NCBI GenBank assembly: GCA_963590435.1 | Contig: CAVAPG010000001.1 | Location: forward strand, 1-55,666 | Direction: 5' to 3' | Length of the DNA stretch: 55,666 nucleotides | From: a bacterium | Lineage (GTDB): Bacteria > Bacillota > Clostridia > Oscillospirales > Oscillospiraceae | Shown: positions 4,456 to 48,034 of the stretch, piece by piece | Layout: each line of letters starts with the position of its first letter | Position numbering within the stretch: the first letter of the stretch is position 1 | Notes under the pieces: generated by a model | Databases searched by the model: none | The model's input: only the letters and a program-made list of their open reading frames with translations | What the model was told of the DNA's origin: nothing | Program-made: the position numbers and the translations under genes

Positions 4456-5165
4456 TTATTAAGCCCCCTTGCATCGGACAGTGCCGCGTCGCGCAGCCTG
4501 GGTACCTGACCTGAGCTGCCGTTTTTGGTGCCTTCGTTCTTTATGGCGACAAGGCGGTTTATCTTAACACCCATCTCTCGGAATTTGCATTCGTAATCGG
4601 TCATGACTCCGCCTTCGCCGTCGGCGTGCAGATCGTTCGTCACATCACAGATCTCCCAGCCCTCGCTTTTTATCTGCTCAAGCGACCAGTTAAAAAGCGG
4701 CAGATTATCCGTCTTGAAGCATATTCTGCCTCCAATCGGCAGAATGTCGGCATAGATACGCAGGAAATTCGGGGATGTGAGTCTGTGTTTTGCGTCGCGG
4801 CTTTTCGGCCACGGGTCGCAGAAGTTAATGAATATACGCTCGACCTCATCCGGTGCGAACACCTCGCGCAGTCCGAGCGCGTCCATAGACACGAAGCGGA
4901 CATTATCCGTCTCTGCCTCGACCGTGCGCTCCATTGCAATCACCATTGCGTCCTCGACCTTCTCCAGGGCAATAAGCTCTGCCTCTGGATGCTCCTGTGC
5001 CGTGCCGACGGTGAAACGGCCTTTTCCGCAGCCTATCTCAAGCCACAGAGTCTTATCCGGATAATGCTCATGCCAGTGTCCGCGCAGGGCGGACGGCTGC
5101 TTTATCAAAACTGCAGCGCATTTTTCCATACGCGGCTGCAGATTGGGTTTCTTTCTCATTCGCAT
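4452..5165 (-). CDS. trmB: tRNA (guanine-N7)-methyltransferase
   Basis: EIGCGKGRF...FINFCDPWPK motifs. The listed ORF begins at a TTG (5192). I prefer ATG 5165-5163 with GGAGG 11 nt upstream, but the start is uncertain. Confidence 0.8.
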   Translation of the reverse strand: MRMRKKPNLQPRMEKCAAVLIKQPSALRGHWHEHYPDKTLWLEIGCGKGRFTVGTAQEHPEAELIALEKVEDAMVIAMERTVEAETDNVRFVSMDALGLREVFAPDEVERIFINFCDPWPKSRDAKHRLTSPNFLRIYADILPIGGRICFKTDNLPLFNWSLEQIKSEGWEICDVTNDLHADGEGGVMTDYECKFREMGVKINRLVAIKNEGTKNGSSGQVPRLRDAALSDARGLNK

Positions 5166-5293
5166 AATGCTGTCAACCTCCGATTCAATCAAGCCTTAAC
5201 ATATCATATATTCGACAAAACATCAATGCGAAAAAATTTGCAAAATTTTTCGCAATCGCGTCTGAAATCGAACATTTTATGGCATTTAACCAC

Positions 5294-5329
5294 TTGAAAT
5301 GGCAAAATCGTTGTGATATAATTCATTAA
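5294..5329 (+). promoter_or_regulatory. Sigma-70 promoter of rex overlapped by an imperfect Rex-box
   Basis: TTGAAA (5294-5299), 17-nt spacer, TG-extended TATAAT (5314-5322). TTGTGATATAATTCATTA (5311-5328) matches the Rex operator TTGTGAA-N4-TTCACAA at 12 of 14 half-site positions. Confidence 0.5.
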
Positions 5330-5372
5330 TCAAATTATTAACCAATTCCCCGCGCGTTAAGGAGAGTCATAT

Positions 5373-6044
5373 ATGAAGCGAGTTAAAGTATCAAATAACG
5401 TCATCCGCCGTATGCCCAGATATCTGAGAAAGCTCGATGAGCTTGACGAGGCAGGCGTGACGCGTATATCGTCCGGTGAGCTCGGTCAGCAGCTCGGTCT
5501 TACCCCTTCGCAGATCCGTCAGGATTTCAGCTGCTTCGGTGAGTTCGGCCAGCAGGGCTACGGATATAAAGTCACAGCTCTTCGTCAGGAGATTGCAAGC
5601 ATCCTCGGCATGGACAGAGGCTATAAGGCAATCATCATCGGCGTCGGCAATATCGGCCAGGCACTCATGTGCAACTTCTCATTCAAGGCCTGGGGCTTTG
5701 ATCTGATGGCTGCATTCGATGTCAAGCAGTCTCTTGTCGGAACGGAATATCAGGGTGTCACGATTCACGACATGTCCTCTCTGCCGCAGTATCTTGAAGA
5801 CAACAAGATTGACGCCGCCGTTCTGTGTGTCCCCAAGGCTCACGCCGTTGAGACCACCAAGCTCCTCACCGATCACGGCATAAACGCTATCTGGAACTTC
5901 ACGAATGTTGAGCTTACATCTCCGGAGAGCAGCACTATTGTTGAGAACATTCACTTCTCCGATTCTCTGCTGTCGCTGAGCTACTACATCTCTGAGGATA
6001 ACGACGAAAAGGCCGCAAGAGCCGCAAGACTGAATCGCCAATAA
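5373..6044 (+). CDS. rex: Redox-sensing transcriptional repressor Rex
   Basis: 223 aa. RRMPRYLRKL..., QIRQDFSCFGEFGQQGYGYKV and the Rossmann motif IIIGVGNIGQAL. Confidence 0.9.
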   Translation: MKRVKVSNNVIRRMPRYLRKLDELDEAGVTRISSGELGQQLGLTPSQIRQDFSCFGEFGQQGYGYKVTALRQEIASILGMDRGYKAIIIGVGNIGQALMCNFSFKAWGFDLMAAFDVKQSLVGTEYQGVTIHDMSSLPQYLEDNKIDAAVLCVPKAHAVETTKLLTDHGINAIWNFTNVELTSPESSTIVENIHFSDSLLSLSYYISEDNDEKAARAARLNRQ

Positions 6045-6050
6045 AACGAC

Positions 6051-6089
6051 ACATAAAAGGCGGGGCTTTTAAAGCCCCGCCTTTTATGT
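6051..6089. terminator. Rho-independent (bidirectional-looking) terminator after rex
   Basis: cataaaaggcggggc-ttttaaa-gccccgccttttatg: a 15-bp stem with A/T runs on both sides. Confidence 0.8.
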
Positions 6090-6277
6090 GCATCAAAAAT
6101 GTCTATGACATTTTTGATTGCTTCAATCTGATTTCGAGTGGGGCCTTTGCCCCCTCGAGCTCCCCTGCTGCGCGGTTGTCTTCCCTCATCAGCGCAGAGG
6201 CTTAGAAATTCTGAAAAACGAGGTTTCAACGCCCCGCCTTTTTATTCCACACTTATTTACACACCGGAGGATAGATT

Positions 6278-7636
6278 ATGTCAGACACAATAGCCGCTGT
6301 ATCAACCGGATCGCAGATCTGCGCGATTGGCATCGTGCGCTTGTCGGGAGATGCCGCAGTAGATATCGCCGATAAGCTCTTTGAGCCGCTTCGCGGCAAG
6401 CCGGTCGCCGAGCGTGAGGACAGAAAGCTCATATACGGTAATCTTCATGACGAGCAGGGCAGAATACTGGATATATGCCTATGCACGATAAGCCGTGCAC
6501 CCAACAGCTACACCGGCGAAAACACGGCCGAATTTCAATGCCACGGCTCGCCCGTGGTTCTCAGGGCCGTCCTCGAAGCGGCGTTTGCGCTCGGTGCAAG
6601 GCAGGCCCTCGCAGGAGAATTCACCAAAAGAGCATTTCTCAACGGACGCATGGATCTGTCGAGTGCGGAGGCCGTTGCCGATATCATAGACGCCGAAACC
6701 GCGGAGGCCGCGCGCAACGCCGCAGGTCAGCTCGGCGGTGCGATTGCAAAGCGCATCGATGCCGTGTACGACACGCTCACGAATATAAGCTCGCATTATC
6801 ATGCCGTTCTTGACTATCCCGATGAGGACATCGAGGATTTCACCCTTGCTCAGTACGAAGCGGATATTGCTTCCTGCACACAGACGCTTGAGAAGCTTCG
6901 TGCAAGCTATGACAGCGGCAGAGTTATGCACTCGGGCGTTCCTGCGGCGATTATAGGCCGCCCCAACGCCGGAAAAAGCTCACTGCTCAACGCCGTTCTG
7001 GGCTATGACCGCGCCATAGTGACGGATATACCCGGCACGACACGCGACACCATTGAGGAAAAGCTGAAGCTCGGCGGCGTTCTGCTTCGCCTGACCGATA
7101 CCGCCGGCATACGTGAAACCGATGACGAGATTGAACGCCTCGGCGTTGACCGCTCGCGCCGCGCAATGGAGCAGGCCGAGCTTGTTCTTGCCGTGATTGA
7201 CGGAAGTCGTGAAATGAGCGATGAGGACAGAGAGCTTATAAAATGCGCTGAGGATGCGCCGCACGGAATCGTTGTAATCTCAAAGCACGACCTCGGCAGT
7301 GCATTTGAAGCTCCCGAAACGGCGCTTCCCGTTGTCGAGATAAGCTCCCTGACCGGTGAAGGGCTTGATAAGCTTGAGAACACGGTGCGTGCACTGTTTC
7401 CGATGCCGACTGTCCCTGCCGGCGAGATACTCACAAATGCCCGTCAGTTTGATGCCGTTTCGCGCGCGCTTGAGTCGATGAAGGCCGCAGCGGATGCCAT
7501 GCATGCCGGATGCACGCCCGATATAGTTCTGACAGAAACGGAAACCGCCATGTCGGCTCTCGGCGAGCTGACCGGAAAAACCGTCCGCGAGGAGATCACG
7601 AACCGCATCTTCTCCCGATTCTGCGTCGGAAAATAG
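6278..7636 (+). CDS. mnmE: tRNA uridine-5-carboxymethylaminomethyl modification GTPase
   Basis: 452 aa. DTIAAVST N-terminus, G1 GRPNAGKSSLLN, DTAGIR and the C-terminal FCVGK tail. Confidence 0.9.
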   Translation: MSDTIAAVSTGSQICAIGIVRLSGDAAVDIADKLFEPLRGKPVAEREDRKLIYGNLHDEQGRILDICLCTISRAPNSYTGENTAEFQCHGSPVVLRAVLEAAFALGARQALAGEFTKRAFLNGRMDLSSAEAVADIIDAETAEAARNAAGQLGGAIAKRIDAVYDTLTNISSHYHAVLDYPDEDIEDFTLAQYEADIASCTQTLEKLRASYDSGRVMHSGVPAAIIGRPNAGKSSLLNAVLGYDRAIVTDIPGTTRDTIEEKLKLGGVLLRLTDTAGIRETDDEIERLGVDRSRRAMEQAELVLAVIDGSREMSDEDRELIKCAEDAPHGIVVISKHDLGSAFEAPETALPVVEISSLTGEGLDKLENTVRALFPMPTVPAGEILTNARQFDAVSRALESMKAAADAMHAGCTPDIVLTETETAMSALGELTGKTVREEITNRIFSRFCVGK

Positions 7637-26285: not shown

Positions 26286-26323
26286 CACATCCCTTGAAGC
26301 ATAATCCGGGGGATGTGTTTTTT
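26286..26323 (+). terminator. Rho-independent terminator after the racemase gene
   Basis: cacatccc-N15-ggggatgtg followed by tttttt. Confidence 0.75.
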
Positions 26324-27506
26324 ACGGAATGCTTATCTCACGGTCATAGCCTGTTCCGAAGCAGAATGAGTATATCTTCCCCTCCGTCGGGTTTACGACA
26401 TTCACCGTGACGGACGTGAAGTCTGCATCGGTGACGCCCTTATCACATGTCGTGCCCTCGGTGTAGCTTATGCCGTTTGCATCGGTCACGGCCTCGTTGT
26501 TCTGCAGCCAGCCCATATTCGGAACGGCAATGCGCAGGATGTTAAACTCCGCAAGGGAGTCCTGTGCGTCACGCAGCTTCGCGTAGGCGTAATTGTGCGT
26601 GTGCCCGTGGAACGTGCCGTATATTTTAGTCTTGTTATATTCGCCGAAATCAACCTTGACCCCCTGCAGCGTAACCGAGCCGCCGAGGGTGTACTGCCTG
26701 AGTATAGTTCCGACGGCACTTGCATTTGTATCGGAGCTTGTATCGCCGGTGAAGTCAAGCGGATAATGCGACAGGATTATAACTCCCCAGCCGTCCTTCG
26801 CGCCGACCTTTTTCAGTTCCCTTGCAAACCAGAGCTGCTGTGACTTGCTGACATTGGCATAGTCATAATATCCGTCGGAGGTGTTCAGGCAGAACACGCG
26901 CAGCTTCAGGTCGCTGAAATCGTTGTAGTTCCATCCGTTATCGTAGCTACCGGCGATTGAGTCCTCCGAATATGCGGCGTATTTGCTTATAAGCGAATAA
27001 TAATTTGACTTTGAAAGAGCGACCATATCGTCCTCGCCGGCTGTGCGAAACTGCACCATCTCCTCGAAGCCCTCGCTGAGCAGGGCATTGATTGATTTAA
27101 TCTGCACTATCCCATCGTCCTTTGTCGTGCCCTCGCTGAGATAATCCCCAAGAAAGCAGCGGAATGCCACATTCGGCACGACATAGCTGAGCGCCTTGAT
27201 TCCCATGCAGGCGTATGTGATTGCCGTCTCGGTACGCGAATCCGTTGCAAGCTTATGCGCATCGGATGCGGCAATGAATGTTATGCTGTCGCTTGTCTGA
27301 ACCGCCGCGGCCTTTTTCGCCGTTTCAAGGGCTGCGTTTTTTACTCCTTCGGGCAAATCCTTTATCTGTATAAGCTCACTGAGCGTAAGACTGTCAATCG
27401 CACCTGCCATTTCCGAGAGCTTGTATTTCGTACTGCCACCGTTCTTTGCGCGAATTGAGTTTGCGATTTCCCGAACATCGCTCTCCTCATAAAGCTTGTC
27501 TGCCAT
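26322..27506 (-). CDS. Phage tail-fibre-like N-terminal module fused to a calcineurin-like metallophosphoesterase domain
   Basis: The N-terminus (VREIANSIRAKNGGSTKYKLSEMAGAIDSL) resembles a motif I recall from Firmicutes prophage tail/receptor-binding proteins. The phosphoesterase motifs are FIAASDAH, ILSHYP and GTFHGHTHNY. Confidence 0.55.
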   Translation of the reverse strand: MADKLYEESDVREIANSIRAKNGGSTKYKLSEMAGAIDSLTLSELIQIKDLPEGVKNAALETAKKAAAVQTSDSITFIAASDAHKLATDSRTETAITYACMGIKALSYVVPNVAFRCFLGDYLSEGTTKDDGIVQIKSINALLSEGFEEMVQFRTAGEDDMVALSKSNYYSLISKYAAYSEDSIAGSYDNGWNYNDFSDLKLRVFCLNTSDGYYDYANVSKSQQLWFARELKKVGAKDGWGVIILSHYPLDFTGDTSSDTNASAVGTILRQYTLGGSVTLQGVKVDFGEYNKTKIYGTFHGHTHNYAYAKLRDAQDSLAEFNILRIAVPNMGWLQNNEAVTDANGISYTEGTTCDKGVTDADFTSVTVNVVNPTEGKIYSFCFGTGYDREISIP

Positions 27507-27943
27507 CAGTAGCTCACCTCGTTTCCGTCCTCGACTTCAATGGTTTTATCCTGCAAACCGATGTACTCATAGCACTCGATGACATCACCGAGCTTTATCG
27601 TCAGGGTCCTATATGACGGCGCATCGGTTTTTTCCTCTGCCGCAACGTCGGTTATGCAGCCGGCACAGCGGAACACCGCCGGCGTTGACGTTCTGAGCTG
27701 ACCGGAGTACAGGCCGACCGAAATCCACGGCTGATTTTTTATAACGGGAAGCGCACAGCTTCTTCCGGAAAACTCGACATCTTCAAATTCTCCGTTTCGA
27801 TAAGCCGTGCGCATGGTTTTGGTTTCATACTCGTCCCACTCGGAGTCCAGCTCGAAATTGACCGTATAGTCGCTGTTGCCGCAGACTATGACAGTGCCGT
27901 CTCCGTGCGCGATTTTGTCCTTCACGCTGATATTTATATCCAT
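27506..27943 (-). CDS. Phage structural (tail/baseplate-associated)-like hypothetical protein
   Basis: 145 aa. IVCGNSDYTVNFELDSEWDEY...KTMRT...VGLYSGQLRTSTPA resembles, from memory, small prophage tail-module proteins. Its TGA shares one base with the ATG of the downstream gene. Confidence 0.45.
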   Translation of the reverse strand: MDINISVKDKIAHGDGTVIVCGNSDYTVNFELDSEWDEYETKTMRTAYRNGEFEDVEFSGRSCALPVIKNQPWISVGLYSGQLRTSTPAVFRCAGCITDVAAEEKTDAPSYRTLTIKLGDVIECYEYIGLQDKTIEVEDGNEVSY

Positions 27944-28030: not shown

Positions 28031-28126
28031 TGCAAGTACTTTACCTCTCAATGTTTTTGCTTTATGGACAATTCCGATCTGATATGTTATGATGAGGGCA
28101 CAAATAATTTTCAAGAGGTAAATGCA

Positions 28127-28603
28127 ATGTCAAACGCCGAGCTGAGTCAGGCGCAGATAGATAAAATATCGCGCGCGGGAATAAAAAAGCTTATTGAGAA
28201 ATATAATCAGTCACAGGGCAAGGATAAACAGTCGCTGTCGCTTCTGCTTGAGCAGCTTGCAAAAACGCCCATGTATTTTGCCGTGAAGAAAAACAGCACG
28301 TCCTCGGCGATGATGAATTTCATAACGCTCACGGTGAACAATCAGGTTTTTATTCCGATTTTCACCTCGCCCGAAGATTTCGGCAAGCTCAAGGATCAGT
28401 GCGAGTGCGTATGCCTCAAGCCGATGGATTATTTTCAGATGCTTGTTGACAACAACCGCCACGCCGTTGTCAATCCCTTCGGGACGTATTTTCTCCTGTG
28501 GCCGGAGCTTGTGCGCGACCATATGCTGCCGTATATGAAGCAGGCCGAGGACTTTGAACGCGCGCAAAAGGAGCAGAAAGGCGGCTTTGCTCCCATATCC
28601 TGA
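28127..28603 (+). CDS. SseB-like family protein (hypothetical)
   Basis: 158 aa from ATG 28127. The pattern ...PMYFAVKK...VFIPIFTSPEDF...AVVNPFG resembles the SseB N-terminal domain family. Confidence 0.5.
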   Translation: MSNAELSQAQIDKISRAGIKKLIEKYNQSQGKDKQSLSLLLEQLAKTPMYFAVKKNSTSSAMMNFITLTVNNQVFIPIFTSPEDFGKLKDQCECVCLKPMDYFQMLVDNNRHAVVNPFGTYFLLWPELVRDHMLPYMKQAEDFERAQKEQKGGFAPIS

Positions 28604-28680: not shown

Positions 28681-31260
28681 TTATTCGCAGAACAGCTCGC
28701 CGTCTCGGACATCGACCTTTATCACATGGTCTGCCGGCATATCTCCCGCGAGAATTGCGCGGGCAATGAGCGTTTCGACGGTGCTCTGGAGATATCTCTT
28801 GAGCGGACGCGCACCGAACACGGGGTCAAAGCCGCGGTCGATTATAAGCTGCTTTGCGCTGTCTGTTATCTCAAGGCCGAGGCCCTTGTCCTCAAGGCGC
28901 TGTCTGAGTGACGAGGTAAGGATGTCTATAATGCCGTCAAGCTCTGTCTTTGTCAGCGGCTTGAAGCAGATAATCTCATCGAGGCGGTTGAGGAATTCCG
29001 GTCTGAACTGCTGATGCAGCTGTGCCATGACCTGATCCTTCGCGCTCTGCTCAATCTCACCGTTATCGTTTATGCCATCGAGCAGGAACTGACTGCCGAG
29101 GTTGGAGGTCATGATGATAATGGTGTTTTTGAAGTCAACCGTGCGGCCCTGCGAGTCGGTCACGCGGCCGTCATCGAGAATCTGAAGCAGAATGTTGAAC
29201 ACATCGGGATGCGCCTTTTCGATCTCATCAAACAGCACTACGGAATAGGGCTTCCTGCGCACAGCCTCGGTAAGCTGACCGCCCTCGTCATAGCCGACGT
29301 ATCCCGGAGGTGCACCGATGAGTCTGGAAACCGAGAATTTTTCCATATACTCGGTCATATCGATTCTGACCATATTGTGCTCGTCATCAAACAGGCATCT
29401 TGCCAGAGCCTTTGCAAGCTCCGTCTTGCCGACGCCGGTCGGACCGAGGAACATGAACGAACCTATGGGCCTGTTGGGGTCTCCGATACCTGCACGCGAG
29501 CGCCATATTGCCTCGGTGACCTTCTGTACGGCCTCATCCTGACCGATAACCGATTTGTGCAGAACCTTATCGAGATTCAGAAGCTTTTCACGTTCACCCT
29601 CAAGCAGCTTGGACACGGGTATGCCCGTCCATTTTGCGACGATGCCGGCTATTTCCTCTTCGGTTACGGTATCGTGCACCATGCTGTCGCTCTTGCGCTC
29701 TTCGCTGTGCTTTTCGGCTTCCGCAAGCTGTTTTTCAAGGGCCGGCAGGTCGGAATATTTGAGCTTCGCAGCCGTTTCGTATTCGTAACGGAGCTGAGCC
29801 TTCTCAATATCGGCATTCATCTGCTCGATCTGAGCTTTGATTTTCTTTACATCGTCAACGCTGTTCTTTTCGGCCTCCCAGCGTGACTTGCGCTCGTTGA
29901 ATTCGTCTTTAAGATTTGCAAGCTCCTCCGTGAGCTTTGCAAGGCGGTCCTGCGAGAGCTTATCCGTCTCCTTCTTAAGGGCGGTTTCCTCAATCTCAAG
30001 CTGCATAATCTTGCGGCGCATATCGTCAAGCTCGGCCGGCATGGAGTCTATCTCCGTGCGGATAAGTGCGCATGCTTCATCGACAAGGTCGATTGCCTTA
30101 TCGGGCAGAAATCTGTCGGATATATATCTGTTTGAGAGCGTTGCCGCCGCGACGATTGCGTTATCGTGAATGCGCACGCCGTGATATACCTCATAGCGTT
30201 CCTTAAGTCCGCGCAGGATTGATATCGTGTCCTCAACGGTCGGTTCATCGACCTGAACGGGCTGGAATCTACGTTCGAGTGCCGCATCTTTTTCGATATA
30301 TTTTCTGTACTCATCAAGCGTCGTTGCACCAATGCAGTGCAATTCGCCGCGTGCAAGCATAGGCTTAAGCAGGTTGCCGGCATCCATGCTGCCTTCGGTT
30401 TTGCCAGCTCCGACTATCGTGTGCAGCTCATCTATGAACAGTATAATCTGTCCGTCGGACTGCTTTATCTCTTCAAGAACGGCCTTCAGGCGTTCCTCAA
30501 ACTCGCCGCGGTACTTTGCGCCGGCTATCAGTGCGCCCATATCGAGAGAGAAGATTGTCTTATCCTTCAGGCCCTCCGGCACATCGCCGCGGACTATACG
30601 CTGGGCCAGGCCCTCTGCAATTGCCGTTTTGCCGACGCCGGGTTCGCCGATAAGCACCGGGTTATTCTTCGTTTTTCTTGAAAGAATGCGGACGACATTT
30701 CTTATCTCCGTATCACGGCCTATGACAGGGTCAAGCTTATTGCTTTTTGCTCTCTCGACAAGGTCTGTGCCGTATTTCTTCAGTGCGTCATAGCTGCTTT
30801 CGGGGTTATCGCCCGTAACCGGACCTTTTTTGACCTTTGACAGCTCTTCGCTGAACTTTGCCTTTGTTATGCCGTGGTCTTCGAAAATGCGCTTTATCGC
30901 AGGCGTCGGGGAGGCGAAAATGCCGATCATGATATGCTCAACCGAGAGGTATTCGTCATTCATGCTCTTTGCGGATTTCTCTGCGGCATTTATGACGCGG
31001 TCTGCCTCGCGCGAAAGATATATATCATAATCGCCCGAAACCTTCGGCATTGCGTCTATTGCAGTATCGAGTTCAGAGAGGACCGCGTTGCAGTCGACTC
31101 CCATACGCTCGAACAGTGACGGAATAAGGCCTCCGTCCTGATCGACAAGGGCATACAGCAGATGCTCCGGAGTTATGTATTGATTGTTATTTTCCATGGC
31201 CATTGACTTGGCCGTCTGGATCATTTCAAGTGTCTTTTGAGTAAAATTCTGTGCGTTCAT
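28681..31260 (-). CDS. clpB: ATP-dependent chaperone/disaggregase ClpB
   Basis: 859 aa. Clp_N repeats, two AAA+ modules ([18 protein letters not shown]) and a long coiled-coil middle domain. Confidence 0.95.
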
Positions 31261-31299
31261 AAAAACACCTTCTTTTCAAATTCGGTAAATTTCAGGGAA

Positions 31300-31950
31300 T
31301 TAAATTAATATATTCGCTCTTCTCAGCTGGGAGAAGTAGCATGCCTCTATGTCGCGGGCGCTGAAGCGTCCGTTCAGATAGCCTTTCATCATCGTGTCAA
31401 ACAGTTTTATGTATTCCGAGAGCGTCTTGGCAAGCTCATCGGATGTGCAGTCACGCGACGGCAATGAAATGGAACGGATAAACTTGCCTTCGTACAGGGC
31501 GTACTTCGGAGGCTCCTGCTCCATAACCGGACGCAGATGCGCATCCTCTATGCTCTTCCATATGCGGAAGAACTCAGTCATTGAACGGATAAGTGCCGCC
31601 GACTGCGTGCGGAATATAACCGTCAGCTCGCCCAGGCAGTCACTGTCGCCTCTGTAAAGCTCAACCTCGTATTTTACCGTCGGTCGGTATTTATATTCCA
31701 GCGATGATTTGAGCGACATCGTCAATGCGTTCGGCGAGACAAACGGAACAAGCTCGCGCGATGATGTCATGAGCTGCTCAATTGCCGAAAAGACATCGTT
31801 TATGCGCCGCTCGGGCGTGACGAGATTCACATGCTCGGCAAGAATCTGATTTATAAGGTTTGAGCGGTTAGTCCCGAGTCTGTGGGCAAGTCTGTCCACC
31901 TCCGCGACAACCTCTTCGGAAAGCATAAGGCTGTAAAGCGTCTTTTTCAT
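31300..31950 (-). CDS. Ribbon-helix-helix (CopG/Arc-like) N-terminal domain protein with an uncharacterised ~160-aa C-terminal domain
   Basis: YSLMLSEEVVAEVDRLAHRLGTNRSNLINQILAEHV is an RHH pattern. The stop is only 39 nt before the clpB ATG, with no terminator between them. Confidence 0.6.
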   Translation of the reverse strand: MKKTLYSLMLSEEVVAEVDRLAHRLGTNRSNLINQILAEHVNLVTPERRINDVFSAIEQLMTSSRELVPFVSPNALTMSLKSSLEYKYRPTVKYEVELYRGDSDCLGELTVIFRTQSAALIRSMTEFFRIWKSIEDAHLRPVMEQEPPKYALYEGKFIRSISLPSRDCTSDELAKTLSEYIKLFDTMMKGYLNGRFSARDIEACYFSQLRRANILI

Positions 31951-32054: not shown

Positions 32055-32103
32055 TAGTTTTATATAAATTTTTTTACGAATTATATATTGGAGGCATTTT
32101 AAA

Positions 32104-32124
32104 GGCAGAGCATACGGCTCTGCC
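32104..32124. terminator. Terminator hairpin after the YlmH-like gene
   Basis: ggcagagc-atacg-gctctgcc with short T/A runs on both sides. Confidence 0.6.
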
Positions 32125-32133
32125 TGTTTTAGA

Positions 32134-32883
32134 TTATTTATATATCTCCGCTTCGACAAAAAGCCGTCCCTTTCGGCTTACGCCGCCGGATGACGAGATC
32201 GTTCCCTTGCCGTGACCGCGCAGAGATATGACATCTCCCGGGGACACTGCGGCATCGTTTTTCAGGCACTGGGCGTAATTCAGGCTCGCCGCGCCCTCGG
32301 ATATATATGAGGATGCCGCCGTGCGCGACAGGCCGAACATCCCGGCAAGAACCGCATCAAAGCGCATGCTCTTGACGGAAAATGACACGCGTTTTACCTT
32401 TCGCTCCGGCTGCCGGAGCGATGACAGCTCCGCTTTTTCGAGTTTGACTCCGTATCTGCCGACCTTATCGAGTCCGTCCGCGACATGACGCTCGACAGAG
32501 TTCATGAGGAATATAACAGCCTCATCGCCGTCAAGCCATATATCTCCGAGCCACTCACGCTTTATGCCCAGGCCGAGTATGGCACCCATGTAGTCGCGGT
32601 GAGACGGCGTGCCGAAATGCGCCTTGGAGCACAGTGCGCTTATATATTCCGAGGCATCGAAGCTCTCGGCCTCCATATAAAACGGCAGGAAAAATGCCGC
32701 ACGGCGCTCGCACCCGTCCGCGCCGCCTGTCAGCAGCATATTGCAGTCCGCCGCCGTCTGCGCCCATTTTTCAAGCGCAAACTGCTCTGCCGGAGTCAGA
32801 AACGCCGTATGCGTAACAGCTGATGTTCTCTCGCATCGGCGGCACAGATCCTCCGCACGGCGGATAAGCTCATCGTTTTCCAT
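32134..32883 (-). CDS. YlmH-like RNA-binding S4-domain protein
   Basis: 249 aa, collinear with B. subtilis YlmH motifs (FLTPAEQ, GG.D.CERRAAFF.P, HRDYMGAILGLGIKREWLGDI, MRFDAVL, GDVISLRGHGK). Confidence 0.8.
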   Translation of the reverse strand: MENDELIRRAEDLCRRCERTSAVTHTAFLTPAEQFALEKWAQTAADCNMLLTGGADGCERRAAFFLPFYMEAESFDASEYISALCSKAHFGTPSHRDYMGAILGLGIKREWLGDIWLDGDEAVIFLMNSVERHVADGLDKVGRYGVKLEKAELSSLRQPERKVKRVSFSVKSMRFDAVLAGMFGLSRTAASSYISEGAASLNYAQCLKNDAAVSPGDVISLRGHGKGTISSSGGVSRKGRLFVEAEIYK

Positions 32884-35356
32884 CTACATACTCCATGATC
32901 TTTTTCATAACCCCGTCAATTTCATCTGAGAACTCCTTCACGGACATTCTCAGCACACCCGAGCGCATTGCCGACAGGCGAATGAGCGAATCGTTGGTGA
33001 CAACCTTGACAGAGTAGTTTTTGCCGATATCGTTTGCAAGCTTTTCGATGTACATATCGGCGGTTTCGTTTTCCTTTGTGTAAACCGTTCTGATGCCGTG
33101 CGTTTCACGCTCACCGACATTTCCCGCAACCCGATAGCCGTCGAAAACAAGCACAAGCTCACAGTCACGCATTGCCCTGTAGCTTCGGAGCACATCGGAC
33201 AGATGCTCGCGTGCAAGCGATAGCGAGGACGCGGCAAGGTTTTTATATTCCTCCGTTCCGAATATGAAATTATACCCGTCCACGATGACATATTCGCGCT
33301 TTGACGGCGCAACGGCATATTCCTGCGTCTGTTGGGTCTGCGTCTTCGTGTACATCCTGCGGCGCACCGGTCCGAACTCGCGCTCCATTATCGCCTCGAG
33401 CTCCTTATCGTCAATGTTGAAAAATCTCGGGCGCTGCACAGCTTCGACCTGACTGCCGCCGATTGTCGGATTCAAGTGCATATACTTTTCGGTTTCGTTC
33501 CATTTGACGACCGTTCCCGCTCCGTGCGAGCAGAAAACGGAATCGGGCGTGTTTTCAACATCCGCCTCGGGGTTATAGGCAATCTCCTCTATGACCCGCT
33601 TTTCGTTGTGGCAGGGATAGTATCCGGCCGCGCGGCAGACGAGTCTGCCCTTGCCCGATGTATATGACGCAAGAGTTTCGGCATAGCCGTTCATTTCCGA
33701 AACAGGAGCAATGCCTGTGATTACACTGCTGCCCTCGGTCTCGAATTTTCCGCTCATGGCGCGGATATCCGAAATTGCCCTGCCTATCTGCTCGGCAGGC
33801 AGCTCAAGTCGGAACTCATACCACGGCTCAAGCAGTACGCTTTTTGCCTTCATAAGTCCCTGACGCACGGCGCGGTAGACTGCCTCACGGAAATCGCCGC
33901 CCTCGGTGTGCTTTACATGTGCGCGTCCGGCAATCAGGCTTATCTTAACATCCGTAAGCGGAGAGCCCGTCAGAACGCCCAAATGAGTTTTTTCTGCAAG
34001 ATTGGTCATAATAAGGCTCTGCCAGTTTCGGTCAAGATCATCTGTCGGGCAGCGGCTCTCAAAGCTCAGCCCCGAGCCGCGCTCGGCAGGCTCTATAAGC
34101 AGATGCACCTCGGCATAGTGCCGCAGAGGCTCGAAATGCCCGACACCATGCACCGGCTCGGCTATGGTTTCCTTATAGGCAATGCCGCCCGACGTTAGCG
34201 TGACGGCAAGCTCGAATCTTTCGCGTATAAGCTCCGTCAGGACCTCGGTCTGCACCCTGCCCATGATGCGCACGCTTATCTCGCGCAGGCGGTCATTCCA
34301 TTCTATGTGAAGCTGAGGATCTTCGTCCTCAAGCTGTTTGAGCTGTCTGTATGCAACGAGGGCATCAACACCGTCGGGAAGCTCTATCTTATAGCTCATC
34401 ACGGCCTCGGTTTCGGGGCTTATATCATCACGCTCAAAGCCGAGCCCCTGTCCGGCATACGTTCCGTCAAGTCCCTGCACGGCGACGATGCTTCCGGCCT
34501 GCGCCTCCTGCACGGTTTCATAATTGGCACCGGAGTAAATGCGAAGCTCGGTTGCCGTCTGCCCGTTAATATTATCGCGGTTGTGCAGTGCTCCGCCGGT
34601 TATTTTCATGCAGCTTAAGCGTCTGCCGCGGGCATCGCGCATTATCTTATAAACCCTTGCGCCGAATGAATCGGGATATTCGGGGCTCACAGTGTATTTT
34701 TCGATAAATTCAATAAGCTCAGACACGCCGTCAAGCTTAAGTCCCGAGCCGAAGAGAACCGGGAAAAGCTTTCTTTCCTTTATAAGTCGCGAGATATCGC
34801 TGTCGGAAATATCCTCACCGCCGGCAAACTTCTCCAGAAGCTGCTCATCGCACATGGCGATGCTCTCTCGCGTTTCCTGCGATGCATCCGAAAGGTCAAA
34901 GCAGTTTTCCGAAAGGCGCTTTCGCAGGTCGTCGATTATCCGCTCCCTGTCGCTGCCGCTGAGATCCATTTTGGTTGCGAATATAATAACCGGCACATTG
35001 TGCCGCTGTATAAGACGCCACAGCGTTTCCGTATGCGCCTGAACGCCGTCGGTTCCGGATATTACGAGGATAGCATAATCTATTACGCCGAGCGTGCGCT
35101 CGGTTTCCGCGGTCAGATCCGCGTGCCCCGGCGTGTCAAGAAGGCACAGCTCCATATTATCCGTACGGAGCTGCGCCTGTTTCGAAAATACTGTTATCCC
35201 GCGTTCACGCTCAATCTGATGCGTATCGAGCGCTGTGTTGCGGTGGTCCACCCTGCCGAGCTTTCTTATGCTGCCGCAGGTATACAGCATTGCTTCGGAC
35301 AGAGTGGTTTTTCCGGCATCGACATGCGCAAGGATGCCGAGAACAAGCTTTTTCAT
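32870..35356 (-). CDS. TetM/EF-G-like translational GTPase fused to a C-terminal Rae1/YacP-type NYN endoribonuclease domain
   Basis: 828 aa. G1 AHVDAGKTT, G3 DTPGH, G4 TKMD and EF-G domain IV/V-like segments run to about residue 640. A linker follows (..TKTQTQQTQ..). Residues ~687-828 (nt 32873-33298) carry VDGYN, LVFDG, YTKENETADMYIEKLA and VVTND, matching YacP/Rae1. Confidence 0.85.
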   Translation of the reverse strand: MKKLVLGILAHVDAGKTTLSEAMLYTCGSIRKLGRVDHRNTALDTHQIERERGITVFSKQAQLRTDNMELCLLDTPGHADLTAETERTLGVIDYAILVISGTDGVQAHTETLWRLIQRHNVPVIIFATKMDLSGSDRERIIDDLRKRLSENCFDLSDASQETRESIAMCDEQLLEKFAGGEDISDSDISRLIKERKLFPVLFGSGLKLDGVSELIEFIEKYTVSPEYPDSFGARVYKIMRDARGRRLSCMKITGGALHNRDNINGQTATELRIYSGANYETVQEAQAGSIVAVQGLDGTYAGQGLGFERDDISPETEAVMSYKIELPDGVDALVAYRQLKQLEDEDPQLHIEWNDRLREISVRIMGRVQTEVLTELIRERFELAVTLTSGGIAYKETIAEPVHGVGHFEPLRHYAEVHLLIEPAERGSGLSFESRCPTDDLDRNWQSLIMTNLAEKTHLGVLTGSPLTDVKISLIAGRAHVKHTEGGDFREAVYRAVRQGLMKAKSVLLEPWYEFRLELPAEQIGRAISDIRAMSGKFETEGSSVITGIAPVSEMNGYAETLASYTSGKGRLVCRAAGYYPCHNEKRVIEEIAYNPEADVENTPDSVFCSHGAGTVVKWNETEKYMHLNPTIGGSQVEAVQRPRFFNIDDKELEAIMEREFGPVRRRMYTKTQTQQTQEYAVAPSKREYVIVDGYNFIFGTEEYKNLAASSLSLAREHLSDVLRSYRAMRDCELVLVFDGYRVAGNVGERETHGIRTVYTKENETADMYIEKLANDIGKNYSVKVVTNDSLIRLSAMRSGVLRMSVKEFSDEIDGVMKKIMEYVDGKR

Positions 35357-36216
35357 AGTCTTATAAGTTCGTATTCGCGGCTTCCGACACCGATCTCCGC
35401 CGCGGCTTCAACGGTGTGGATGCCGTTTCTTGATTCAATGCGTTCTATGAGGTCGCCCTTGTCGGGATCATCGCTTGCATACACGAGATCAACGCAGGCC
35501 TGATCGAGTGCAACGGGATCAAGAGAGGATAAAATACCGATATCGCCTATCTTCGGATCTGCCGCGACGGCACAGCAGTCGCAGTCAACGGACATGTTCT
35601 TCATTATGTTCACGAATGCCATGTTTCCGCCGAAGTGATCCACAATGCTCTTTGCGGCATCTGCCATGCATTCAAGGAAGCTGTCATGATCAGAATGCCA
35701 GAAGTTATTGACATCCTTTACGCCGTGGATATATTTCTTGCCGTAGCTTGATGCAAGACCGATTGATATATTCTTCAGTGCACCGCCGAAGCCGCCCATC
35801 GGGTGGCCCTTAAAATGCGAGAGAACGAGCATGGAATCATACTCCGGAAGGGTTTTTCCGACATAGTTTACATCCAGGTGCATGCCGCCGACAACGGGAA
35901 TTGTCATATCGCCGTCTGCGTCCATGATATCGACATCCGCAATCTCGATCCAGCCGTGCAGCTGCATGGTTTTCCTGTGGTGCTCGGTGGTATCTCTTCC
36001 GCCGTCATATGCCGTGTTGCATTCGACTATCGTTCCGCCGACATGGCTGACAGCCGGCTTCATAAAGCTCGGACGCAGAAAATTCTGATTGCCCGGCTCT
36101 CCGCTGTGAAGCTTCACCGCGACATTCCCTCCGAGGGCAACGCCGAGAGCCTCGTATGCCTTTATAACATTTTCGGGACTTATCTCATTTATGAAATACA
36201 CCTTTGATTTTTCCAC
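35353..36216 (-). CDS. DUF362-domain protein
   Basis: 287 aa. KVYF....VKLHSGEPGN..F..P...ECNTAY pattern and a CDCC cluster. GTG start with an AAAGGA RBS. 4-nt overlap with the GTPase gene. Confidence 0.7.
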   Translation of the reverse strand: MEKSKVYFINEISPENVIKAYEALGVALGGNVAVKLHSGEPGNQNFLRPSFMKPAVSHVGGTIVECNTAYDGGRDTTEHHRKTMQLHGWIEIADVDIMDADGDMTIPVVGGMHLDVNYVGKTLPEYDSMLVLSHFKGHPMGGFGGALKNISIGLASSYGKKYIHGVKDVNNFWHSDHDSFLECMADAAKSIVDHFGGNMAFVNIMKNMSVDCDCCAVAADPKIGDIGILSSLDPVALDQACVDLVYASDDPDKGDLIERIESRNGIHTVEAAAEIGVGSREYELIRL

Positions 36217-36246: not shown

Positions 36247-36275
36247 ATTATATAATATTATTCCCCTCTGTTCAA
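36247..36275 (-). promoter_or_regulatory. Sigma-70 promoter of the DUF362 / GTPase-NYN / YlmH-like operon
   Basis: On the minus strand: TTGAAC (36275-36270), 17-nt spacer, TATAAT (36252-36247). Confidence 0.6.
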
Positions 36276-45576: not shown

Positions 45577-45924
45577 ATGAAGATAATCAAAAAATGGATC
45601 GGCCGCCAACCGGAGAGCGCCGGTGAGATAAGACTTTTAGAGGTCACACAGGCTGAAATGTTTGAGCAGATGTATCCGCTGCTCGGTCAGCTTGCCCTGC
45701 ACGCGACGAGCGGCCATGATGTCGATTTCCGTCTGTATTTTATCTGCGAGGACGGCCGCCGCATACTGCCGGTGGATAAGCCGAGCGTCATGAGCGGAGC
45801 GTTCAACAACGGTGTTAATCCGCTTGCAGACTGCGATATAATCACGGCCGAGAATATCTCGGAGCTTGTTGACACAGGCTCTCTGCTCCCCGCCGTCAAG
45901 GCAAGCGAGTATCTGTTTAAATAG
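45577..45924 (+). CDS. Hypothetical protein (115 aa), no recognisable motif
   Basis: ORF with a GAGGGAG RBS 6-7 nt upstream, followed directly by terminator copy A. Confidence 0.5.
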   Translation: MKIIKKWIGRQPESAGEIRLLEVTQAEMFEQMYPLLGQLALHATSGHDVDFRLYFICEDGRRILPVDKPSVMSGAFNNGVNPLADCDIITAENISELVDTGSLLPAVKASEYLFK

Positions 45925-46074
45925 AAAAGCTCAGGTCAAGCGACCTGAGTTTTTTATTATTTATCATCCTATGCCGCCGAGGGCTGCACCTGCGACGAGG
46001 GCAATCAATACGCAGGCGCAGTAGACATATTTGCCGAGGGGATAGAACCATTTACCGATGGGCTTGCGTACCGA
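45924..46074. repeat. Direct repeat copy A (~151 bp): terminator hairpin plus the duplicated 3' end of the NSS transporter gene
   Basis: About 95% identical by eye to 46591-46745. Contains the ctcaggtc-N4-gacctgag hairpin with flanking A and T runs (45925-45955). Confidence 0.9.
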
Positions 46075-46075
46075 C
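45964..46075 (-). pseudogene. Orphan 3' fragment of an NSS/SNF transporter gene
   Basis: Encodes RKPIGKWFYPLGKYVYCACVLIALVAGAALGGIG*, which is 33/34 identical to the C-terminus of the intact gene at 46633-47973. Similarity stops abruptly at ~46075. Confidence 0.8.
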
Positions 46076-46365
46076 GAGCAATAGATTCCTGTTTCGTCAA
46101 AATTTACATATTCATTGCAAGGAATATGTTCAAAACGCAGAATGCATAAATATTTCCAATTTGGCATTGAGTTTCTATACCCGGTTATGGTAATATGTGT
46201 ACAATAGCTCTTTCAATTGCAACTGTAAGCGAAAACTATATAGAAAAAATCAGCAACGGAAAAAGTATGAAAAAATCACTTTCAAATGGACTTATATGGG
46301 TGCCCAGAATGGCACAGAAGCTTATACAAAACCGCTGACGGTTACAGGCAGGTGGTAATCAGCTT

Positions 46366-46578
46366 ATGAAAAAGTTTCTTTTAGGACTGGCCTTATTTCT
46401 CGGAGGTCAGATAGGGCTTGCCGGATGGCTTATCGCAAGCGCGCTCCTCGGCGGCGGGGGTGTCCGTATCACGCTGCTCTACATTCTGATGTCTTTGGTC
46501 GGCCTTGTGCTCTCTGTTTATGAAGCATTCGCGCAGCGCCCTAAAGACGGGCAGGATGATAAACGCGAAAATCAATAA
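46366..46578 (+). CDS. Small two-TM membrane protein (70 aa), hypothetical
   Basis: MKKFLLGLALFLGGQIGLAGWLIASALLGGGGVRITLLYILMSLVGLVLSVYEAF followed by a charged tail. AGGTGG lies 10 nt upstream. It sits inside the cassette bounded by the direct repeats. Confidence 0.5.
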   Translation: MKKFLLGLALFLGGQIGLAGWLIASALLGGGGVRITLLYILMSLVGLVLSVYEAFAQRPKDGQDDKRENQ

Positions 46579-46590
46579 CAGCCCAGATAT

Positions 46591-46745
46591 GAAAAAGCTC
46601 AGGTCAATCGACCTGAGTTTTTTTATTCTTTATCATCCTATGCCGCCGAGGGCTGCACCTGCGACGAGGGCAATCAGTGCACAGGCGCAGTAGACATATT
46701 TGCCGAGGGGATAGAACCATTTGCCGATGGGCTTGCGTGCGCCGA
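46591..46745. repeat. Direct repeat copy B (~155 bp): the authentic 3' end and terminator of the NSS transporter gene
   Basis: See copy A. The hairpin ctcaggtc-aatc-gacctgag (46598-46617) is flanked by an A-run and a T-run, so it is a bidirectional terminator. Confidence 0.9.
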
Positions 46746-47973
46746 GGTTGACGGATTCGAGTGCGAATTTTTCTCCGCCTATCCAGAAGAACATAATTGC
46801 CGCAATCAGCGCACCGAGCGGGCATATGTAAATGGACACAACATCCATCCACTCGGACACAATCGCCTGAATGCACAGGGCAACGCCGCAGCCAATAACA
46901 TGTATCACAGCCGTCGCGGGCACGCGCTTTAATTTGAATTTCTCCTGCAGAAACGCAACGGGGGCTTCGTAAAGATTTATTATCGAGGTAAGGCCGGCAA
47001 ACGTGACGCAGATGAAGAACACGATGCCGACTATGCGTCCGCCTGCCATGCCGTTTATGACGTTGACAAGGTATATGAACATAAGGCCCGGGCCGCCGGA
47101 GTCAAGCTGCGCTCCGCCCGTTGCCATGGCCGGAATGATGACAAACGCCGCAAGCAGTGCTGCGAGCGTATCGAACACGGCAACATTGCGCGCCGATGAC
47201 GGGATGCATTCGTCCTTGCTCAGATACGAGCCGTATATGACGCTTCCGTTGCCTGCAACCGACAGCGAGAAGAACGCCTGACCGAAGGCATATATCCACA
47301 GCTTCGGATCTGCAAGTCCCTTGGGATTTATCGTGAGGATATATTTATATCCGTCGGATGCTCCGGCGAGAGTTGATATATAAGTACCCAATCCGAGAAA
47401 CAGTACGAACAGCACGGGCATCATGACCTTGTTGGCCTTTTCAATGCCGCCGGATATGCCGAAGGACATAATGGCAAAGCTCACGGCAATGGCGACTATT
47501 ATCCAGATATTTGCGCCCCATGCGCTCGCTGTCGCGCCGAATGTTCCGCCTATGACATCCATATCCTGGCCCATGCCGAACAGGCTTCCGGTGAATGACA
47601 TGAATGTGTATTTGAATATCCAGCCCATTACGCAGGTGTAGCCTATGGCCAGTGCAAGCGAACCGAGGATGGGGATATATCCTATTGTCTCGCCGATCTT
47701 GCGCTTGCCGTATCTGAGCTCGGTGCATTTGCCGAACGAGCCCATAGGTCCGGCTCCGCCTGCCCTGCCGAGGGCAAACTCCTCAATAACGCCCGTGGAC
47801 GCTATAAGTGCAACAAAGATGAAATACGGAAGCAGGAATGTCAGGCCGCCCCATGTTGAAACCAGCATCGGGAATCGCCATATGTTCCCCATTCCGACCG
47901 CCGAGCCTATGCATGCGATGATAAATCCGCTTCGACTGCGAAATCCGTCGCGCTTGTGTTCGTTTTTCTCCAT
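46633..47973 (-). CDS. Sodium-dependent transporter, NSS/SNF family
   Basis: GSAVGMGNIWRFP signature and ~11-12 TM helices. Preferred start is ATG 47973 (MEKNEH, AGAGGAAA RBS). In-frame upstream ATGs lie inside a tandem repeat. Confidence 0.85.
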   Translation of the reverse strand: MEKNEHKRDGFRSRSGFIIACIGSAVGMGNIWRFPMLVSTWGGLTFLLPYFIFVALIASTGVIEEFALGRAGGAGPMGSFGKCTELRYGKRKIGETIGYIPILGSLALAIGYTCVMGWIFKYTFMSFTGSLFGMGQDMDVIGGTFGATASAWGANIWIIVAIAVSFAIMSFGISGGIEKANKVMMPVLFVLFLGLGTYISTLAGASDGYKYILTINPKGLADPKLWIYAFGQAFFSLSVAGNGSVIYGSYLSKDECIPSSARNVAVFDTLAALLAAFVIIPAMATGGAQLDSGGPGLMFIYLVNVINGMAGGRIVGIVFFICVTFAGLTSIINLYEAPVAFLQEKFKLKRVPATAVIHVIGCGVALCIQAIVSEWMDVVSIYICPLGALIAAIMFFWIGGEKFALESVNLGARKPIGKWFYPLGKYVYCACALIALVAGAALGGIG

Positions 47974-47987
47974 TGCAGTTTCCTCTT

Positions 47988-48034
47988 GCTCTCTCATTTT
48001 AATTTGCTCTCTCATTTTAATTTGCTTTCTCAAC
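47988..48034. repeat. 18-bp tandem repeat, ~2.6 copies (gctctctcattttaattt)
   Basis: 47988-48005 is identical to 48006-48023, followed by a partial third copy. On the coding strand each unit carries AAAATGAGAGAG, an in-frame ATG plus a purine-rich stretch. Confidence 0.85.

Follow-up and report, generated by a model that had tools for sequence, protein, structure and literature searches.

What does a bacterium gain by tying an endoribonuclease to a translational GTPase? The question is raised by a gene on a 55,666-nucleotide (nt) stretch of DNA, hereafter the window, which is drawn from contig CAVAPG010000001.1 of assembly GCA_963590435.1, a single contig of the metagenome-assembled-genome type. 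The gene encodes one protein of 828 residues in which a translational GTPase related to EF-G and to the tetracycline ribosomal-protection (Tet) proteins is covalently joined to an NYN-domain nuclease of the Rae1/YacP type. The most economical reading of this architecture is a GTPase-directed delivery of an RNase to ribosomes, and we give roughly an even chance to the proposal that the protein is a ribosome-targeted messenger RNA (mRNA) endonuclease that takes part in monitoring or rescuing stalled ribosomes.

Fusions of a TetM-like GTPase to an NYN_YacP domain have been noted before in Clostridia, by Atkinson 2015 (BMC Genomics, PMC4342817) and Matelska 2017 (NAR, PMC5499597), whose accounts extend to ten species and to "some Clostridia" and give no function. 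The window protein has the same domain order, comes from the same taxon and displays no structural difference from them; it is a member of this described group, and the bare architecture is not new. An earlier note on this DNA, made from the sequence by itself, had not recognized the arrangement as a characterized system. This stands in so far as no functional characterization of the fusion was found in the literature searched, although the architecture itself had already been reported (PMC4342817, PMC5499597). What is added here is the size and breadth of the family, the intact and conserved catalytic sites, the failed tests of membership among the Tet proteins, a structured Cys/His module, tethers of variable length, unfused orthologues, and translational coupling to ylmH in one clade.

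Rae1, an mRNA endonuclease whose activity depends on translation, acts at stalled or collided ribosomes and feeds the transfer-messenger RNA (tmRNA) system (PMC12407103, PMC13622287). A 2026 preprint describes its action on collided ribosomes, which generates tmRNA substrates in a pathway termed "CART", and states that there is no structure of ribosome-bound Rae1, the binding being transient (PMC13622287). The earlier note had treated cleavage by Rae1 within the ribosomal A site as established. That position has been withdrawn by the same laboratory, and the idea of A-site docking explicitly retracted (PMC12407103); cleavage is now reported to occur 12 nt upstream of that site, in ribosomes that are stalled or collided.

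The fusion and its family

The gene forms a single unbroken frame of 828 residues (32870..35356, minus strand), as the earlier note had read it, and all the sequence motifs quoted in that note are found in its translation. Separate Pfam profiles likewise bear out its assignment of GTPase domains to the N-terminal part and of NYN_YacP to the C-terminus of one chain. The predicted full-length model (AlphaFold; predicted local distance difference test, pLDDT, 74) matches EF-G structures over about 680 columns (Foldseek, E = 1e-50). The protein is a genuine fusion, in one covalent chain, of a Tet/EF-G-like translational GTPase with an NYN nuclease of the Rae1/YacP type.

A scan of species-representative genomes gave at least 587 stretches encoding a relative, of at least 600 listed, and 80 of these loci were kept (L001-L080). 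Relatives of the fusion hence occur in at least 587 species-level genomes, and every one of the 80 kept loci encodes it at full length. For the study of diversity, an alignment of 151 sequences was assembled from the window protein and the 150 best representatives of clusters at 50% identity, which are at most about 50% identical to one another. All 150 are family members and about 140 carry the co-linear fusion, which amounts to at least 140 fusion clusters at 50% identity. Closer to the window protein, the protein collection holds 16 near-identical entries (90% identity or more) and over 100 entries at 62-89% identity. The carriers are Clostridia, namely Oscillospiraceae, Ruminococcaceae, Acutalibacteraceae and Lachnospiraceae (Blautia, Agathobacter, Herbinix and others), with further examples in Flavonifractor, Intestinimonas, Monoglobus, Anaerovorax and Fusibacter, and the family is very common in the Clostridia of the human and animal gut. 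Strong purifying selection acts on both enzymatic halves.

The breadth of the family also disposes of the suspicion, raised in the earlier note, that a frameshift or mis-join at the junction has merged two separate genes. This explanation is already refuted because the fusion is conserved across the family, and we assign it next to no probability. The same co-linear open reading frame (ORF) recurs, in independent assemblies, in the 16 closest entries and in the more than 100 at 62-89% identity, as well as in all the kept genome loci and in all but about ten of the 150 distant representatives; furthermore, the junction region holds conserved motifs of its own. No point in favour of an artefact was found. 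Production of a separate NYN protein from an internal start was also considered, there being a promoter-like site at 33387-33414 and a codon for M668, yet M668 is not conserved in the family and this candidate was rejected. A clustering oddity should be mentioned here: in the 90%-identity cluster of P0009, DUF362 proteins of 287 residues are grouped with fusions of 829 residues, and its count of "3649 members" is thereby inflated. This mixed cluster is an artefact of clustering, and its cause is probably read-through ORFs.

Two intact enzymes and a flexible connector

The N-terminal 592 residues contain the G domain and domains II-V of an EF-G-like factor (Table 1). The G domain displays the G1 motif AHVDAGKTT, the switch-I residue T55, the G3 motif DTPGH with its catalytic H78, and the G4 motif TKMD. 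Across the 151 aligned sequences K16, T55, D74 and G77 are invariant, and H78 is kept in all but one. TKMD, which the earlier note had given as the G4 motif, is present in the window protein but proves to be a minority variant; the position reads [NTS]KxD in the alignment, with NKxD as the family consensus (137 of 151). The same note had extended the GTPase-type domains to about residue 640, but the EF-G-type domains stop at about 592, with a terminal helix of domain V at 585-592 that is seen in both predicted models.

TetO aligns with the fusion in a single stretch (fusion residues 1-582 against TetO 1-613). The alignment with EF-G splits into two because the fusion protein does not have the long G' insert, EF-G residues ~162-209 being without counterpart. 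The fusion has the overall fold, the GTPase motifs and Pfam domains III-V in common with EF-G; unlike EF-G, it is devoid of a G' subdomain, loop I of its domain IV falls 4 residues short of the EF-G loop, and the residues of the translocation tip are replaced. With Tet(M) and Tet(O) (3J9Y, 4V6V) it shares the five-domain organization of EF-G paralogues that are without the long G' insert, the full-length alignment, and a short domain IV loop I of similar H-x-E-P character. It differs from them in that identity is only about 30%, loop III is not kept, the C-terminus is different, the gene is chromosomal and vertically inherited, and the protein carries a nuclease.

A striking signature of the family lies in the two tip loops of domain IV, which are family-specific: GHFEPLRHY (residues 406-414) and GRAHVKHTEGGDF (residues 477-489). 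Within the former, HFEPLRHY is kept in close to 100% of sequences (H407, E409, P410 and L411 in 151 of 151, H413 in 150), and in the latter H483 is kept in 149 and D488 in 150 of the 151. The YSPVS motif of loop III in TetM and TetO (YYSPVS in TetO) is not conserved in the fusion family. The tip of domain IV is distinct from the tips of both EF-G and TetM. The GTPase half represents a separate subfamily of Tet-like EF-G paralogues and, by the tests available, is not a resistance determinant.

The C-terminal half, which the earlier note had identified with YacP/Rae1 and credited with intact acidic sites, is recognized by the NYN_YacP profile over residues 690-822 with 122 bits against a gathering score of 24.6 (E = 3.3e-35). 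It aligns with the sequence of the B. subtilis YacP/Rae1 crystal structures (5MQ8/5MQ9) at E = 3e-17 and 30-32% identity. In this alignment the catalytic aspartates D693, D739, D767 and D789 correspond to D7, D53, D81 and D104 of Rae1, and D7N/D81N is the published catalytic-dead mutant of that enzyme (PMC10351889). All four are kept in 140-141 of the approximately 142 sequences that bear an NYN domain. An AlphaFold model of residues 575-828 has a mean pLDDT of 86.5, with values of at least 95 in the NYN core, and its best PDB matches are 5MQ9 and 5MQ8, at 1.5-3.0 Å root-mean-square deviation and template-modelling (TM) scores of 0.69-0.77, the next match being 1e7-fold weaker. These data uphold the identification in that note, and the aligned residues indicate that the GTPase and nuclease active sites are both intact and conserved.

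The fusion and B. subtilis Rae1 thus have in common the NYN_YacP fold, the D7/D81 pair and other acidic residues, and the presumed substrate is alike, namely mRNA on stalled or collided ribosomes. Rae1, however, is a free protein of about 170 residues with a C-terminal tail and a transient ribosome association, whereas the NYN domain of the fusion is tethered in cis to a 590-residue GTPase, behind 687 residues, and has no tail. Its match covers positions 1-136 of the 166 in the PF05991 profile and the protein ends about 6 residues later, so that the ~30-residue C-terminal tail of free Rae1 is missing. This loss fits a situation in which the GTPase supplies the contact with the ribosome. Among stand-alone YacP proteins, identity to the NYN domain of the fusion does not exceed 37%. 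There is no second NYN gene within the window, and in the plasmid collection a Monoglobus genome, apparently present in pieces and with uncertain coverage, yielded only the fused NYN copy.

Between the two halves the earlier note had seen a Thr/Gln-rich linker. This description holds for the second of two linkers only, the rest of the connector being a Cys/His module and a conserved helix. The module is 34 residues long in nearly all 140 fusions and is predicted with a pLDDT of about 88. Together with the end of domain V it presents a conserved set of residues, C582 (134 of 151 sequences), C609 (132), H611 (114), W619 (134) and H627 (135), with H583 beside C582, which constitutes a possible metal site. 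The notion that the metal might be zinc has a single ground, the conservation of C582, C609, H611 and H627. The conserved helix, which reads DDKELEAIMEREFGP..RR, sits between two disordered stretches. In total the tethers that hold the nuclease measure 45-186 residues across the family. Since the module is fixed and the disordered stretches vary in length, the nuclease is on a flexible tether and not rigidly docked. Residues 593-690 gave no Pfam match at E <= 5 and no sequence match in the PDB. The possibility that the helix at 649-661 represents the C-terminal helix of TetM/TetO was examined and rejected, as a profile of residues 567-690 retrieved no Tet chain at E <= 10. The segment encoding the conserved helix also contains an imperfect 18-nt tandem repeat (33377-33410, ELEAIMEREF), which is probably due to chance.

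Complete GTPase orthologues that are not fused to a nuclease also occur (e.g. P0250 and P0258; Table 1). They end just after the Cys/His module and no NYN gene adjoins them. As these unfused orthologues carry the module, it is part of the GTPase, and the NYN domain is an addition to a factor that already existed. One such orthologue, LSL_RS10690 of Ligilactobacillus salivarius, is divergently oriented from rpsN, the gene for ribosomal protein S14, and from a gene for a "putative metal homeostasis protein", a curious arrangement given the Cys/His module.

Table 1. Coordinates of the fusion gene, the segments of its product, adjoining features and unfused orthologues. Positions refer to the window unless a locus is named.
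Feature	Position	Strand	Description
Fusion gene	32870..35356	-	Tet-like translational GTPase and Rae1-type NYN endoribonuclease, 828 residues; ORF, Pfam, NCBIfam, full-length homologues
G domain, residues 5-222	34691..35344	-	PF00009 GTP_EFTU, E = 3e-48; short Tet-type G' region
Domain II, residues 232-301	34454..34663	-	PF22042 EF-G_D2; Foldseek match to EF-G
Domain III, residues 317-388	34193..34408	-	PF14492 EFG_III, 24.3 bits, slightly below its cut-off (27); fold confirmed by Foldseek
Domain IV, residues 391-505	33842..34186	-	PF03764 EFG_IV, E = 3e-18
Domain V and terminal helix, residues 507-592	33581..33838	-	PF00679 EFG_C (507-586), E = 5e-15
Family-specific C-terminal module, residues 593-627	33476..33580	-	Fixed length; beta-hairpin and helix
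Variable linker 1, residues 628-648	33413..33475	-	Between anchors 627 and 652: 5-145 residues, median 36, 24 here; low pLDDT
Conserved helix DDKELEAIMEREFGPVRRR, residues 649-669	33350..33412	-	Alignments A1 and A5; helix 650-661 in models
Variable linker 2, residues 670-687	33296..33349	-	Between anchors 661 and 693: 26-92 residues, median 42, 31 here; Thr/Gln-rich
NYN_YacP endoribonuclease domain, residues 688-828	32873..33295	-	PF05991; D693, D739, E762/E764/D767, D789
DUF362 gene	35353..36216	-	PF04015; stop overlaps the fusion start codon (ATGA); first gene of the apparent operon
ylmH orthologue	32134..32883	-	249 residues; PF17774; overlaps last 14 nt of the fusion gene (ATGGAAAACGATGA; GGAG upstream)
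Promoter-like -35/-10	36247..36275	-	TTGAAC, 17 nt, TATAAT; upstream of the DUF362 gene; consensus scan only
Hairpin	32103..32125		9 bp, G+C-rich; 8 nt after the ylmH stop; minus-strand T-run weak
Unfused GTPase orthologues	L086 4001-5971; L087 4001-5905
Unfused orthologue LSL_RS10690	L169 4986-6920		Ligilactobacillus salivarius UCC118 megaplasmid pMP118

A proposed role on stalled ribosomes and its rivals

In the mechanism that we propose, the five-domain EF-G/Tet-type body formed by residues 1-592 would dock in its GTP form in the factor-binding site of the ribosome, where the tip of domain IV would probe the A-site/decoding region. The Cys/His module and the conserved helix, followed by the two disordered tethers, would hold the catalytically intact Rae1-type nuclease, and with the GTPase engaged this nuclease might cut mRNA on or beside the same ribosome. 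Because domain IV would fill the A site, simultaneous cleavage inside the A site is unlikely. The most plausible place for the cut would be mRNA that is exposed close to the bound ribosome's entry side, and in a collided pair it might fall immediately upstream of the stalled leader, at the site of cleavage by free Rae1. In the 70S ribosome the factor site is located near the mRNA entry side, and a factor on the trailing ribosome of a collided pair might allow its tether to reach the inter-ribosome mRNA upstream of the leader. GTP hydrolysis would release the factor, and the truncated mRNA would render the ribosomes substrates for tmRNA or other rescue systems. In the lineage of the window, where the fusion gene overlaps an orthologue of ylmH, co-translation might further co-ordinate the cutting of mRNA with the clean-up of the 50S subunit. 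We infer, in this scheme, that the protein binds ribosomes, that it prefers stalled or collided ones, that its substrate is mRNA, where the cut is placed, and that there is a connection with tmRNA or with ribosome-associated quality control (RQC).

Several features of the family agree with this role. A nuclease that has lost the Rae1 tail and acquired a ribosome-binding module agrees with the replacement of a weak, transient contact by a gated one that the GTPase provides, and the ylmH coupling in the clade of the window fits a function in quality control. The setting in the core chromosome and the near-absence from mobile elements amount to a distribution of the housekeeping type, which supports a role in stalled-ribosome surveillance or rescue. 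Other considerations weigh against it. Rae1 cuts at the mRNA-exit side of the stalled ribosome, but an EF-G-type factor binds near the entry side; owing to this mismatch the geometry works only with the factor on the trailing ribosome or with a long tether. The existence of unfused orthologues implies that the GTPase has a function of its own. Outside ylmH, in one subclade that makes up about 5% of the sampled species loci, no conserved neighbour backs a part in rescue. Finally, the evidence on members of the family consists of sequence and predicted structure.

Among other roles, we regard it as improbable that the fusion is a factor in ribosome biogenesis or turnover, with the NYN domain cleaving precursors of ribosomal RNA (rRNA) or transfer RNA (tRNA) instead of mRNA. 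This kind of role was the first to be predicted for YacP, from its operon with Mini-III and RlmB. Such a processing role for NYN_YacP has been proposed by Matelska 2017 (PMC5499597) and by Anantharaman & Aravind. GTPases are numerous among ribosome-assembly factors, the extreme degree to which the domain IV tip is conserved would suit contact with an invariant rRNA element, and NYN/PIN relatives that act in processing of the small subunit appear among the lower Foldseek matches. Nevertheless, Rae1, the only characterized member of PF05991, cleaves mRNA in dependence on translation and no rRNA role was found for it; the GTPase belongs to the elongation-factor type, which binds the mature 70S ribosome, and not to an assembly type, and the 80 loci reveal no linkage to rRNA-processing genes. 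Less probable still, and in our view very unlikely, is that the protein is a tetracycline ribosomal-protection protein with an accessory RNase domain, providing a variant form of resistance as suggested by Atkinson 2015, who assigns such proteins to the Tet subfamily (PMC4342817). The best NCBIfam model is indeed tet_protect (381 bits), the end-to-end alignment with TetO and TetM runs without the G' insert of EF-G, and NCBI and IMG label such genes "ribosomal protection tetracycline resistance protein". The scores, however, lie far below the curated cut-offs of the Tet models (NF012153, 381 against 775; NF033148, 269 against 1100; NF012155, 217 against 1420; NF012154, 227 against 1425; NF000120, 266 against 900). 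The EF-G models are likewise under their cut-offs (TIGR00484, 268 against 659; NF009381, 316 against 583). Moreover, the drug-displacing loop III (GLYYSPVSTPADF in TetO) gives way to GRAHVKHTEGGDF, itself a conserved feature of the family, and identity to the TetM/TetO-type genes of mobile elements is about 30%. The fusion is inherited across whole families of Clostridia in a core chromosomal context and was encountered in 2 of 72,556 plasmid records, both of them atypical large replicons that look chromosomal.

The same distribution bears on the suggestion of the earlier note that the fusion might be a toxin-like or abortive module, that is, a defence system that cuts ribosome-bound RNA upon phage attack. 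A ribbon-helix-helix protein encoded two genes downstream and a full-length copy on an UNVERIFIED faecal virome scaffold speak for this suggestion. Against it, neither the fusion nor its neighbours have a PADLOC match, the 80 loci contain no conserved antitoxin-like partner, and the gene is a single-copy core gene of hundreds of clostridial species in an ordinary metabolic or housekeeping context that is nearly absent from phages, plasmids and viral contigs. We consequently hold a defence function to be highly unlikely. A mobile-element or defence origin was rejected on the same searches of PADLOC, plasmids, phages and viral contigs, which were negative apart from the two replicons and the one virome scaffold. 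That scaffold (L170; MT835563.1, positions 3958-6555) is labelled "Bacteriophage sp.", derives from human faeces and encodes a full-length fusion with 47% identity; bacterial DNA within a virome data set is its most likely origin. What probability remains falls to functions outside the readings named here.

The proposed delivery of a nuclease to stalled ribosomes has partial parallels in known systems. SmrB of E. coli, Cue2/NONU-1 of eukaryotes and MutS2/RqcU of B. subtilis do a job like the one proposed for the fusion, in that they cut the mRNA of, or split, the stalled or collided ribosome. They do so with SMR domains and are recruited via the disome interface or ubiquitin. None of them is known to use a translational GTPase, and their nuclease folds are unrelated to the NYN fold of the fusion. 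The underlying logic is also that of Pelota/Dom34-Hbs1 and of other A-site factors delivered by GTPases, in which a translational GTPase brings an effector to the stalled ribosome and GTP hydrolysis gates the step. Those systems, however, combine a separate GTPase of the EF-Tu/eRF3 type with a non-nuclease effector, whereas the fusion unites an EF-G-type GTPase and a nuclease in one chain.

A more far-reaching version of the proposal can be put forward tentatively, as one that is possible but on balance unlikely. In much of the Clostridia the fusion might be the lineage's own Rae1, a GTP-gated nuclease of no-go or collision decay that is delivered in cis. Its body would read the state of the ribosome (an A site that is vacant or blocked, or a trailing ribosome that has collided) and license the NYN domain, and the operon with ylmH would couple cleavage to a 50S clean-up of the RqcH type. 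By "Rosetta stone" logic, the unfused GTPase of Lactobacillales might then be an unrecognized partner of free Rae1.

How Rae1 recognizes stalled or collided ribosomes is a question that the fusion could help to answer. It ties a Rae1-type nuclease to a factor that might be locked on the ribosome by a non-hydrolysable GTP analogue and so offers a ready-made handle; a GTP-locked factor with the catalytic-dead D693N/D767N pair of substitutions could show where the nuclease is positioned and which segment of the mRNA it reaches. In addition, the coupling with ylmH is a hint that the cleavage branch (Rae1/tmRNA) and the splitting branch (RQC), currently thought to be independent, may communicate. 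There is also a practical aspect, in that the routine mis-annotation of these proteins as products of tetracycline-resistance genes inflates resistome counts in gut metagenomes. The evidence argues for a housekeeping factor of translation quality control over a resistance gene.

Gene neighbourhood in the window and beyond

The window is an ordinary piece of core chromosome, with genes for MnmE, YchF, enzymes of the shikimate and aromatic amino-acid pathways, Dus, PanB, ClpB and HtrA; no tRNA genes, Rfam features or matches to defence models were detected in it. The fusion seems to occupy the central place in a small operon of the order DUF362, fusion, ylmH (Table 1), and the hairpin at the far end of ylmH is a possible terminator of this operon. 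The DUF362 gene is kept only in relatives with at least 72% identity and is absent at 65% and in the genome loci; its membership in a functional unit is doubtful.

The product of the ylmH gene matches B. subtilis YlmH (8S1P_V) over its full length (residues 22-243 against 31-251, E = 2e-25), with the RRM-like and S4 domains both covered, and its S4 domain is only weakly detected in Pfam (E = 0.17). YlmH, a factor with an S4 domain, can take the place of RqcP in the RqcH-dependent alanine tailing of obstructed 50S subunits (PMC11317155). In 8 related loci, with protein identity as low as about 54%, the fusion and ylmH remain adjacent while other neighbours differ; in one of them (L084) RNase Y lies downstream and DUF362 is absent. 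Of the 80 species loci, 76 do not show this adjacency. The ylmH gene is likely to be a co-translated partner of the fusion in the lineage of the window only.

Clustering of the flanking ORFs and Pfam searches of adjacent genes on the same strand revealed no family-wide conserved neighbour in the 80 loci. The adjacent families that recur are generic (ABC, MatE, two-component and AraC), each accounting for at most 3 of about 54 adjacent genes. Transporter genes lie near the fusion in a number of loci, L013 (6260-7723) and L085 (9329-10672) among them. In 13 of the 80 species loci a MatE-family efflux gene is situated no more than 8 kb away, usually in the same orientation, and an MFS transporter adjoins the operon in the clade of the window. 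This proximity may reflect only the abundance of these families or local synteny.

Just downstream of the operon (28681-31950, minus strand) a protein of 216 residues, whose only match is an N-terminal ribbon-helix-helix, is encoded, followed by ClpB; this order is kept in relatives at 72-88% identity and not beyond. Further along, two adjacent genes with overlapping stop and start (26322-27943, minus strand), coding for 394 and 145 residues, have no Pfam or PADLOC match and are adjoined by an SseB-like gene (28064-28603). In another part of the window an SNF-family transporter gene (46633-48033) has a second copy of its 3' end some 0.6 kb downstream of the gene (45917-46167 and 46604-46740). 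The duplication flanks an ORF for a membrane protein of 70 residues (46366-46578), and an ORF of 67 residues repeats the last ~35 residues of the transporter almost exactly.

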